DNA of 34,970 nt from a virus (Duplodnaviria; Heunggongvirae; Uroviricota; Caudoviricetes): the IMG/VR virus record IMGVR_UViG_2529292908_000012. One strand, given 5' to 3'. The position numbers and the translations under genes were made by a program. Shown in pieces: positions 1,502 through 9,856 of the stretch (positions are counted from its first letter, which is position 1; every line of letters begins with the position of its first letter). Under the pieces are notes generated by a model, which saw only the letters and a list, made by a program, of their open reading frames with translations, searched no databases and was not told where the DNA came from.

Positions 1502-4500
1502 TTAATCCACTCCCACTTTTTTGTTGTACTCGCGGTTAAACCGATCCACGGCAACCTTCATATCCCGCTCTACCGATTTCACCATCGCCGCCTGCTGCGC
1601 CAGACTGAGAGAACTGTCGGCATAAATGGCATCGCGCTGTTTGCGCAAATCCTTCAGTCTCTTCCGGGTATCCTGCATAAGCCCGTTCATCAACAATTTT
1701 CCGTTGTTCTCGTCAATGAACGCCGTTCTTTCTGCACCGGTCAGACTCTTCAGCTCTGCGTGATACTGCGCAACCTCTGTCATCCGGTCGTACATCTTCT
1801 GCTGGTCTGCATACGGCATCACCTCACCCGAAATTTTCCCCAGGAAGGGCACCTGCTGTTCCGGTATATCAATACCATTCAGCGATTTCACCGCCGCATC
1901 CGTGGTTTTGGAAATGAAGCGCCCTGTCCCTCCGGAGATATAGTCAATCCAGAATTTCAGCGATTCCGGTGTGATATCCACCGCGCCGGGACGATACTGG
2001 CTGCCACCTGAGAACGCATTCAGCCAGAATGCAAACGCCTTGTACGCTTCTGGCGTTGAACGTCTTCCCAGCTGGCTGTCAGGTTTTGGTGTACCAAACG
2101 GCATGTTCTCCTGGTAAATCTGCGCCCCCATGAAGTTTTCGTTCATGGCAAGATTCGCAAACGGACGCAGAATTGTCGGTGCTGCATTTTTCAGCAATGC
2201 CCCCGACAACGTTTCCGACATCTCGCTGCCGATCGGGCTGAATGCCCCCAGGATACCGCCGACAACATTACCGGCAGCACGTGAAGCAGTCAGGTCGCCC
2301 GCTGCCACACCTTCAGCTGTATGACCAAGCAGGAAGAACACGTTGTACCCGTAAGGCAGAGGAATACTCCAGTACTCACCGGCCTTGCCCCCGAACATCG
2401 ATTTCATGATGACGAGGTTACGCTCTTTCACATGAGACGGTACTTTGTCGTACCAGTTAACCCCGTCATCATCCTCACCCGCCACACTGCGGTTAAGCGA
2501 GCCAAGCAGATAACCCGCTCCCACAGCTGCAAGCACGATTTTCTGCGGTACATTGAGATTCTTCCAGCGAAGGCGCTCCAGTAACGGCCCGTCGCCATTA
2601 AGATGTCCGAGCGTTCTCACCAGGTTTGCGGTCCCCTGAATGCTGGCGTTGGCAAACATGTACAGCGAGTTCATCAGCATCCCCTGCTCACCACGACGGT
2701 TAAAGTTCACCGTCATGTTTTTGGCAAGAGACGCCGCCTGCTGGCGTGACAAACCGGCATCACGGGCGTGTTTATAGGCAGAAAGACGCAGAGCGTTTTC
2801 AACCGCGCCGTTGGCATCCTCGACCAGGTTCAGGAACGAATGCCATGCACCGATACTCTGGCCTTTCCATCCGCCCTTCGCCAGCGACACAAGGCGATCC
2901 ATTTCCTTCTGCTGGCCCTCAAGGTCACCCATGTTAAACCAGCCGGTTTTACCTCCGTCCTCAACAAACTCTTTCCACACTTTCTGCCACTGTGCGCCTT
3001 TGCCCGTGAGGGTTTTACCCCGCAGACTTGCGTATACGGCTGACATGGCGGAACGGCTGTCTTTCACCACAGCCAGCGCGGATAAGTTATCCAGCCCTTT
3101 CAGTTTGCCGTCGCTTCTTCCCTGCTCAGCCTTCAGGTTCATCACCGCAGTCTGCACGTCACGGATGAAGTTACTGACCAGAAATTCCGGGTTATACGAC
3201 GTGTTCACCGTTGCCAGGAAGCGGTTAACTTTCCCCAGCGTACGGATTACGGCGTTACTGGTTTCCGGCCCCATGTTCTTCATCGCACGCATCAGGCGCG
3301 GATCATGAAGTTTAATGTAGTAAGTTTTGCCGTCCTTTTTGGTGGTGAAGTAGCGATCCGCCATCATTGCCATCGGCACAGGGCGCTCGACAACTTCGCG
3401 AATGGTTTCACCAGTTTCCTGGTCCTTGCGCTCTGCAATCACACGCATTGTATCCGGTCTGTCATCAGTGAATACCTGCCAGTAATCCTTGTCGGGATTA
3501 TCCTGTACCAGTTTCAGGAAGGCGTTACCCACTTCATTTTTGCGATTGCGGATCAGCGATTCACTCAAATCCTGTATCGCCTGAGTGGAAGGAGACTGTG
3601 CGCGGGATGCACGCCCCATGGCCTGCTTACTTTCACGCCCGCCGATGGTGAATCCCTTGCCTGTACGTGGCAGTGACACCACACCGTCAACATCCTGCCC
3701 TTTCAGGGGGACGTAGTAACGGTAGGCTTTCTGCCAGGCATCCACCACGCCGCTCTCTTCCAGTCCTGCCTCACGGATAATCTCACGGCGACGGGCCAGC
3801 ATATCGTCAATAATCCCTGCCAGACGGTCATACTGTGCCTGTTTGCCGCTGTTACGCACACGCTGCATGATTTCCGCCGCTTCCGCGTTGGTCATCCCCG
3901 AACCGCCGTCCGGCATTTTCGGGTTGATTTTCGCAATATGCGCGTTACGTTCCGGCGCGTGACGGGCGTAGAGGTACTCATCCAGATCGGCCTGCGCAAT
4001 TTTGTAGTCCGCCAGCAATTTGGCCAGCGGCTGAACGTAGCGCTCCTTCATTACGTTCAGGTCGTTTTCCGCCTTCCCGTGGAAGAGTTCTTCAGCCATA
4101 TAGGCGTTATTGCTGTCATCTATTTTTCCGCCAGTTTTACGGATATTCTCCTGCACCGCCTTCAGCACCTGGAATTTATCCTGCATCTGGCGAACAAAAC
4201 GGGATGCAATTGTCTCTTCCGGCGTCAGACTGCTGGTGCGGGAGTAATACGGCCCCTTGCGAATATCTTCAGGATAGAGTATTTTATCTACAGAGCCGCG
4301 ATAAGAATGTTCCCCTTTGGGCAATTGAAGCCCTCTGTGCAGAAGGTTATCGCGGCTTAATTTTTTCTTCCGGTAAAGCGTTAATCCGGCTTTATCCAGA
4401 CTATTTGCCTTATTCATTCCTCCTTCCGTACCGTAAACCGAAGCTACCTTGTTGATTTCCAGGCGCGACCGGACAGCCTTCATGTGTACCGCTGACACTA

Positions 4501-9856: not shown

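Follow-up and report, generated by a model that had tools for sequence, protein, structure and literature searches.

How does an 8.35-kb reading frame come to stand open in a prophage that has lost its head and packaging genes? The question is raised by a tailed-phage DNA of 34,970 nucleotides (nt), the IMG/VR virus record IMGVR_UViG_2529292908_000012, which was analysed over its full length and is called the window here. We consider it likely that the frame encodes a virion-internal polyvalent protein of the short-tailed phages of the Traversvirus type (933W/Sp5/phi24B), that is, a head-packaged ejection protein with effector cargo, and that in the window it is a stranded passenger.

The giant reading frame and its orthologs in Shiga-toxin phages

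The open reading frame (ORF) in question, as given by the ORF listing and the translation, is:

1502..9856, minus strand: giant ORF with an ATG start, 2784 amino acids (aa)

It is the longest ORF of the window by a wide margin and is translated without an internal stop. With about 3 stops per 64 codons, the chance of finding 2784 stop-free codons is (61/64)^2784, or about e^-133; the 8.35-kb open frame is thus real, beyond chance. Two HExxH motifs are present, HEWFH at aa 1274-1278 (nt 6023..6037, minus strand) and HEIIH at aa 1541-1545, the latter as part of the string HEIIHHAMEH (nt 5207..5236, minus strand). The content of Gly plus Ala is 24-32% across aa 101-500. Proline accounts for 6-13% across aa 401-900, and the net charge per 100 aa in the same region is -10, -8, -6, -1 and -6. 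In all of this the initial annotation, which had described an intact 2784-aa ORF at 1502-9856, the two motifs at these nt positions, a Gly/Ala-rich N-terminus and a long acidic region, was accurate. Two stretches, aa 181-199 and aa 2436-2458, are moderately hydrophobic (Kyte-Doolittle about 1.35). The 2784 aa do not include a single cysteine, which fits a protein that has to unfold and cross the periplasm. About 30 would be expected in an average E. coli protein of this size.

From its sequence, the gene is the ortholog of Sp5 ORF80 (ECs1242), 933W L0134 and phi24B gp47. PHROG 616 matches it from end to end (aa 1-2784 against profile positions 1-2793), and the orthologs are collinear along the whole length (2783-2811 aa, 91-99% nt identity). 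The similar-sized ORF in 933W-type Shiga-toxin (Stx) phages that had initially been suggested with some doubt is L0134. At a coverage of at least 80% and 90-99% nt identity the gene occurs in 186 phage records, and in all of them it is essentially whole; the matches are Stx1, Stx2 and stx-negative Traversvirus phages and include 933W (L0134), P13374 and phage 86. It was also found in 427 of 5426 complete E. coli genomes, 423 of which have at least 80% of it in one place. Interruption of the homologs is thus not routine. The sole frameshifted copy among those sampled, in E. coli 2013C-4361, lacks one G of a G5 run at about nt 3537, which may be a sequencing or assembly error instead of real decay. 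In genomes and RefSeq the gene is annotated as 'LPD38/LPD5 domain-containing protein'. Its position is kept in the ortholog loci as well: the late operon ends with it, and the 421-aa (ORF79) gene comes directly before.

The published work on the orthologs bears directly on function. When Mondal et al. (2016) deleted Sp5 ORF80 (ECs1242, 2,793 aa), excision, DNA packaging and head shape were normal (PMC5155283). The mutant formed no plaques and no lysogens, and the defect could be complemented (PMC5155283). Deletion of Sp5 ORF79, the homolog of the 421-aa neighbour, gave the same phenotype, and this gene is essential too (PMC5155283). In phi24B, gp47 (2811 aa) is abundant in purified virions by mass spectrometry and absent from the cryo-electron microscopy map (bioRxiv 10.64898/2026.04.10.717836). 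For gp47 the authors propose an ejection protein that resides in the head interior (bioRxiv 10.64898/2026.04.10.717836). Among the giant relatives, that of phage JC1 is associated with the virion (PMC9144972) and that of phage PTXU04 is essential. By analogy with the orthologs, for which both properties have been demonstrated, the giant protein would be essential for infectious particles and borne by the virion. The verdict of the initial annotation that its function is unknown is outdated by the essentiality of the Sp5 ortholog (PMC5155283) and the virion location of the phi24B ortholog (bioRxiv 10.64898/2026.04.10.717836). According to the annotation of intact relatives the gene is encoded among the virion late genes, and the protein may be delivered into the host cell with the DNA.

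Conserved ends and a variable middle

The protein can be divided into the following parts:

8492..9856, minus strand: N-terminal module, aa 1-455, Gly/Ala-rich, with the hydrophobic stretch aa 181-199 (HMMER relatives)
6857..8491, minus strand: acidic Pro-rich linker, aa 456-1000 (composition)
6287..6718, minus strand: LPD5 domain, aa 1047-1190 (Pfam PF18799, E 4.5e-43; AlphaFold2 (AF2) pLDDT >90)
5567..6343, minus strand: putative first zincin, aa 1172-1430, CLCA_X-like, made up of the C-terminal part of LPD5, the HEWFH helix and LPD1
6023..6037, minus strand: HEWFH motif, aa 1274-1278, with D1281 after it (motif without variation in a set of 24)
4895..5458, minus strand: putative second zincin, aa 1467-1654, of the HExxH/HExxxH type (AF2 model and aligned homologs)
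5219..5236, minus strand: HEIIHH motif, aa 1541-1546 (HExxH or HExxxH in aligned relatives)
4361..4639, minus strand: MuF_C domain, aa 1740-1832, with a BECR/RelE-like fold (Pfam; the model matches RelE-type toxins)
1505..4276, minus strand: C-terminal module, aa 1861-2784 (924 aa), mostly alpha-helical, with LPD38 at aa 2467-2672 (nt 1841-2458) and the hydrophobic stretch aa 2436-2458

The Pfam matches to LPD5, LPD1 (aa 1351-1430), MuF_C and LPD38 are all above the cutoffs and make this a phage-type polyvalent protein, in line with the resemblance to 'polyvalent' injected proteins that had been pointed out initially.

Conservation of the N-terminal module became visible with distant relatives. 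An exhaustive HMMER search with aa 1-460 yielded 100 cluster representatives, most of them 2000-5500 aa long, and nearly all match at their own N-terminus; a word-indexed search with the N-terminus returned only fragments from E. coli and Salmonella, and the distant relatives needed the exhaustive search. Among the 64 representatives of at least 1500 aa the module is present in 63, the second zincin in 45, and a C-terminal module of the LPD38 type is recognisable in 12. Other giants with this N-terminal module end in LPD39. The middles of these giant proteins in general vary (Strawberry-notch-like helicase, DdrB-ParB, methyltransferases). The linker, which has no Pfam match even at E<=5, is probably disordered; most of the in-frame indels that distinguish the orthologs fall in it, and its rate of nonsynonymous substitution (dN) is higher. 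Pfam at E<=5 gave nothing usable for the N-terminus, the linker and the surroundings of the HExxH motifs (Gly-zipper, E 0.075; Peptidase_M76, E 0.18), and sequence searches of the PDB with the whole protein, a central profile and a C-terminal profile gave no match below E 0.1.

The C-terminal module is shared with a different set of proteins. It has 40-58% identity to the C-termini of marine gammaproteobacterial proteins whose N-terminal parts differ (ADP-ribosyltransferase, methyltransferases, RadC, lysozyme, GNAT), and about 100 positions are invariant among 37 sequences. The module occurs in 339 phage records, among them Vibrio phages (41% identity) and Bcep22-like phages of Ralstonia and Burkholderia (28% identity), where the gene is called DarB-like. 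It matches BFVD models of many phage giants, including that of PTXU04; its own model is mostly helical (pLDDT 74), and no PDB counterpart was found. In a metagenomic relative (L011) the gene order nozzle, needle, 435-aa gene, giant gene is kept, and the cargo consists of RadC and an AcrIF11-like ADP-ribosyltransferase, which is possibly a virion-delivered anti-CRISPR. The 435-aa gene, in the equivalent position, is a weak homolog of the 421-aa gene of the window (E 8e-7). The giant gene of L011 (6772-15025) is called as two overlapping ORFs of 1087 and 1674 aa, and BLASTP of our first 1000 aa against the 1087-aa ORF upstream of the homolog gave no match. On a contig of Amphritea sp. (10001-12946) a 981-aa protein consists of the LPD38 C-terminal module only and lies beside an integrase, Exc and a YqaJ exonuclease. 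This locus looks like a prophage remnant and would be a second case in which the C-terminal module has outlived its phage.

Both HExxH motifs, initially recognised as zincin-like, lie inside conserved zincin-like domains, as seen in the homolog columns, the AF2 model and the CLCA_X match. The layout of zincin-like metallopeptidases (MPTases), a three-stranded sheet, a HExxH helix and a downstream Glu helix, is present in the protein. Iyer et al. described an MPTase variant in which strand 2 ends in a His and HExxH is followed, three residues on, by an Asp (PMC5512222). The first zincin is this variant: HEWFHSLD is present and conserved. In the aligned columns of 92 diverse LPD5-LPD1 homologs H1274, E1275 and H1253 are each kept in 84 of 89, H1278, D1281 and E1365 each in 84 of 84, and E1372 in 83 of 84; the near-invariant residues read 'AHYE ... 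INLTK.NG.GSLAHEWFHxLDNYF ... EMAARAFE'. We regard it as a putative CLCA_X-like domain with a predicted MtfA/anthrax-lethal-factor-like fold, the model superposing best on MtfA, lethal factor and PPEP. NCBIfam CLCA_X (NF041907) matches aa 1172-1427 with E 5e-45 over 243 of 250 profile positions, and the score of 153.8 bits is below the cutoff of 260 bits. By profile match the domain is thus a domain-level homolog of CLCA_X and not a family member by the NCBI rule. The CLCA metalloprotease domain has CLCA_X as its sister group in phages and plasmids (Lenart et al. 2013, PMC3650047).

The second zincin is the HExxxH variant of Iyer et al. (PMC5512222). Its model consists of a helix, three strands and then the motif helix; the 'AMEH' that trails HEIIHH is not conserved among relatives. 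In the giant relatives that have it (45 of 64) it usually sits directly before the last 900-1100 aa or so, and its ratio of nonsynonymous to synonymous substitution (dN/dS) of 0.06 is the lowest in the protein. Proteolytic activity of either zincin is putative.

The MuF_C domain is predicted to be an RNase or RNA-binding domain, not a peptidase. The N-terminal, portal-associated MuF domain of the MuF/SPP1 gp7 proteins was not found with Pfam, only the C-terminal MuF_C. In the phi24B preprint MuF-C is termed a peptidoglycan-degrading metallopeptidase (bioRxiv 10.64898/2026.04.10.717836). This label conflicts with Pfam, with the BECR assignment of Iyer 2017 and with the RelE-like model. The predicted zincin sites lie elsewhere, in the two HExxH domains upstream of MuF_C.

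For the N-terminal module a link to the virion RNA polymerase (vRNAP) of phage N4, gp50, was found. The profile of the module aligned with gp50 aa 296-445 at an hhalign probability of 93.6% (E 2e-7), and 30 locally shuffled N4 decoys remained at or below 1%. The hidden Markov model of the module scored 31.6 bits against gp50 aa 230-445, the maximum in 2000 composition-preserving local shuffles being 15.1. In the reverse search, N4 aa 200-470 weakly matched several giant proteins. These profile comparisons indicate that the module is homologous to N4 vRNAP aa ~230-445, which is only about 215 of the roughly 1000 aa of the N4 N-terminal domain. According to a review that cites unpublished data (PMC4496689), genome injection requires the N-terminal domain of vRNAP, and encapsidation its C-terminal domain. 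Hhalign aligned gp50 with the N-terminal module only and detected no similarity between our C-terminal module and the gp50 C-terminus, and Pfam found no RNA polymerase family in the giant protein.

Proposed role, its alternatives and the state of the prophage

A likely sequence of events is the following. In a working phage the giant protein would be made late from the Q-antiterminated operon and packaged inside the T=9 head, as the presence of phi24B gp47 in virions by mass spectrometry suggests. It would be needed for infectivity and not for DNA packaging, as judged from the Sp5 ORF80 deletion. Upon release of the needle the protein would leave the head before or together with the DNA. The N-terminal module and the C-terminal LPD38 module would form the constant chassis for delivery and packaging, and the middle, with LPD5, the CLCA_X/MtfA-like zincin and the RelE-like MuF_C, would be the cargo. 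The second zincin, which immediately precedes the C-terminal chassis, probably cleaves the polyprotein into functional pieces, a target among host proteins also being possible, and MuF_C would bind or cut RNA. In the window, three very recent deletions have left the protein unpackageable and probably not made.

Another explanation is a purely accessory effector against restriction or host defence, similar to P1 DarB and without any part in structure or ejection. In its favour, the C-terminus matches a PHROG that bears the name 'DarB-like antirestriction', the annotation of relatives in Burkholderia and Ralstonia phages is DarB-like, and there are relatives with helicase, methylase, RadC or AcrIF11-like ADP-ribosyltransferase domains. 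Still, we regard this explanation as unlikely. The giant protein itself has no helicase or methyltransferase domain detectable with Pfam, NCBIfam or PHROG, whereas relatives such as P0307 have them, and identity with DarB was rejected for the lack of helicase and methylase. Its resemblance to the 'DarB-like' proteins lies in the N- and C-terminal chassis and does not extend to the enzymatic cargo. P1 DarB makes a difference only when the host restricts. The ortholog, in contrast, is essential for plaques and lysogeny (PMC5155283), and this counts against a DarB-like accessory role.

Even less probable is a tail-assembly factor, possibly an AAA+ ATPase that powers tail formation, as was proposed for Sp5 ORF80 from a match to COG1483. 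It would account for the normal-looking, DNA-filled heads of ORF80-deleted Sp5, to which an anti-tail-fibre antibody does not bind (PMC5155283). However, such heads could also result if an internal protein that seals or stabilises the portal-tail channel were missing. Moreover, the abundance of the protein in mature phi24B virions is not what a transient assembly factor would show, and its relatives have swappable effector domains. The 2784 aa contain no Walker A motif ([AG]xxxxGK[ST]), and no ATPase family was found with Pfam, NCBIfam or PHROGs. The AAA+ ATPase idea was rejected for want of a P-loop.

The history of the prophage explains how the gene is found in an element without a head. Placement was done by megablast against the 5426 E. 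coli genomes, and the deletions were determined by pairwise BLAST against the intact prophages of FORC_069 and NCCP 13983. Positions 1..14441 and 14438..34970 of the window map to one prophage in ynfG of FORC_029, FORC_043, FORC_069, NCCP 13905 and NCCP 13983. In these strains it is complete: integrase, recombination module, cI/cro region, replication, nin region, Q, NanS-p-type esterase and lysis genes are present, as are terminase, portal, a major capsid protein of the N4-gp56 family, adaptors, tail fibre, nozzle and needle, and the late operon ends with lom/hok, the 83-aa gene, the 421-aa gene and the giant gene. The deletions and the genes at the second junction are:

11622..11627, no strand: deletion junction, 2,478 bp lost, 6-bp overlap
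14438..14441, no strand: deletion junction, 15,184 bp lost (head and packaging module), 4-bp overlap
18666..18667, no strand: deletion junction, 5,202 bp lost (Q and nin region), 2-bp overlap
12787..14061, minus strand: J-like 424-aa 'tail tip fibre' (needle) gene, full length
14058..14633, minus strand: nozzle gene remnant, last 191 of 541 aa kept

The first deletion takes out three hypothetical genes, hok and the N-terminal part of lom. With the second, two thirds of the nozzle gene, cor, the tail fibre, the adaptors, the major capsid protein, the portal, both terminase subunits and part of Rz are gone, and with the third Q, ninH, rusA, the antirepressors, ninB and the start of a RelE/ParE toxin gene. 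The overlap of 2-6 bp at each junction suggests microhomology-mediated loss. The initial annotation was thus right that the prophage is defective, with head genes and Q lost and lom, Rz and a toxin gene cut, and wrong in counting J among the truncated genes: the J-like 424-aa gene has the same length as in the intact prophages, and the cut gene is the neighbouring nozzle. The PHROGs label for the family that matches the needle and nozzle region (12787-14061, 14058-14633) is 'internal virion protein'.

Outside the three deletions the window is 99.86-100% identical to the intact prophages, and between the giant gene and its FORC_069 copy there is a single difference in 8355 nt. Neither of the first two junctions occurs in the 5426 complete genomes, none of which covers at least 80% of window positions 1-25000 in one place; as far as these two junctions tell, this suggests that the deleted form has not spread.

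Directly upstream of the giant gene lie:

9874..9893, minus strand: terminator-like hairpin with a T7 run, directly upstream of the GGAG ribosome-binding site and the ATG of the giant ORF
9925..11190, minus strand: 421-aa partner, homolog of Sp5 ORF79/ECs1241 (PHROG 601)
11201..11452, minus strand: 83-aa partner (PHROG 594), adjacent in FORC_069 and TW14359

The 421-aa neighbour and the 83-aa or 97-aa neighbour are common to the window and the orthologs. That the gene travels with these partners is borne out for the 421-aa gene, adjacent in every ortholog locus fetched, and for the 83-aa gene in FORC_069 and TW14359. The last 48 or so residues of the 83-aa protein weakly match the OmpA-like family PdsO (E 1e-7, far below the cutoff). 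The hairpin is kept in 7 of 7 orthologous loci examined, with paired variation (A..T / G..C) at the stem base, and may make expression of the giant gene strictly dependent on Q antitermination. With Q gone and the hairpin before it, the giant gene in the window is probably silent, and there is no head to take its product. A promoter scan found fewer sigma-70-like sites than in shuffles.

The survival of the frame in a decayed element had initially been taken as a sign of purifying selection. This argument fails here because 1 nt in 8355 and flanks of 99.86-100% identity are too little divergence for decay; with so little change since the deletions, a neutral sequence would likewise still be open. 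Judged by these identities, the deletions are very recent and the intactness of the gene is uninformative on selection inside the decayed element. Purifying selection appears instead as a property of the phage family, in which this is an essential virion gene of working phages. Among seven orthologs pairwise dN/dS is 0.11-0.24, with the lowest regional values (0.06-0.07) in aa 1431-1700 and aa 1861-2672, and the orthologs differ in length only through in-frame indels, most of which fall in the linker and the LPD5 region. In a broken prophage, an intact gene can be read as a sign of selection only if one knows how long ago the breakage happened.

Domestication, i.e. that the host keeps the gene in the dead prophage for a benefit as toxin, defence or exclusion factor, to which the initial argument from an 8.35-kb frame open in an element unable to make particles amounts, is highly improbable: at this divergence the neutral expectation of disrupting changes is far below one, the absence of the first two junctions from the complete genomes suggests no spread, Q and the region just downstream are gone and the conserved hairpin precedes the gene, and PADLOC has no defence model that fits the giant protein or either of its partners. 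The last result and the recent deletions led to the rejection of the defence-gene idea.

Several points weigh against the reading as an ejection protein. The failure of ORF80-deleted Sp5 heads to bind the anti-tail-fibre antibody is interpreted by Mondal et al. as a tail-assembly defect (PMC5155283). For the orthologs, too, ejection is a proposal, which the phi24B authors drew from the absence of gp47 from the map (bioRxiv 10.64898/2026.04.10.717836). Strong transmembrane segments were not found in the giant protein, whose best stretches reach a Kyte-Doolittle value of about 1.35. A strand and the HExxH of the second zincin can be aligned to the N4 MPTase, and this alignment is not significant (hhalign E 0.02, probability 2%; BLASTP E 0.37). 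Finally, pR' was probably lost with Q in the window prophage, as judged from position only.

Two further regions of the prophage may be mentioned. A 636-aa SASA/NanS-p-type esterase (16399-18309, minus strand) is intact. Its homolog phi24B gp84 was recently reported to be a proteolytically processed capsid-decoration protein, and hence the esterase, too, would be a virion protein with no capsid to join. To the left of the window, in the interval from attL to the giant gene, intact relatives (locus L001, 10800-15040) carry plus-strand ant, BRO, traR, DUF4752 and ead/Ea22 genes. This block resembles a fragment of the early region of another phage, and the DUF551 gene of the window (372-1100) is part of it.

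Comparison with known systems

The giant gene is already known: hundreds of genomes have it annotated, the names of its domain families date from 2017, the demonstration that it is essential from 2016 and the report of its presence in virions from 2026. The architecture of frame plus cargo and the N4 link, as read from sequence, would be modest additions. Together, the conserved N- and C-terminal frame and the N4-related N-terminal module offer a testable model of how the most widespread Shiga-toxin phages pass DNA and effectors across the envelope.

Closest are Sp5 ORF80, 933W L0134 and phi24B gp47, which share with the gene in the window their neighbours, their place as the final gene of the late operon and the upstream hairpin. 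Only the context differs, the window being without the head, packaging and Q genes and some of the genes for lysis and tail. The definition of the LPD families, of the clades of MPTases and of the PBECR/MuF-C domain in polyvalent proteins goes back to Iyer et al. 2017 (PMC5512222). The phage-type members are giant multidomain late products with LPD domains, like the protein described here, which has both MPTase variants, the PBECR (MuF-C) domain and the phage-restricted LPD38. The 455-aa N-terminal module and the full 924-aa C-terminal module, however, were not defined there as a conserved frame around variable cargo.

P1 DarB and the 'DarB-like' giants of Bcep22, JC1 and Ralstonia phages are virion-associated, and those of the podophages have the C-terminal module (28% identity over about 85%). 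The helicase and methyltransferase domains that define P1 DarB are absent from our protein, so the likeness is one of chassis. With the CLCA_X/CLCA_N zincins and the MtfA/lethal-factor-like peptidases the first zincin shares HExxH followed by a conserved Asp. It differs from CLCA_X in being embedded in a giant protein and not free-standing, and its activity is predicted only.

N4 gp50 is, like the giant protein, a head-packaged giant encoded by the last gene of the virion module, and the major capsid proteins of both phages belong to the N4-gp56 family. Gp50, too, has an HExxH MPTase downstream of its central part, although its match to the second zincin is not significant. Yet gp50 is a T7-like single-subunit RNA polymerase, and its job in early transcription has no counterpart in the giant protein. 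A tentative interpretation, possible though short of probable, is that the Stx-phage giant and N4 vRNAP are two forms of one ancient cargo-delivery chassis of T=9 podophages, with an N-terminal injection module, a zincin, a C-terminal packaging module and a middle that is swapped between lineages. If this were true, RNA polymerase, helicase/methylase, ADP-ribosyltransferase/anti-CRISPR and RNase or peptidase would be such swappable middles, and the giant gene of the Stx phages would encode an essential ejection device and, at the same time, the carrier of a first-strike effector.

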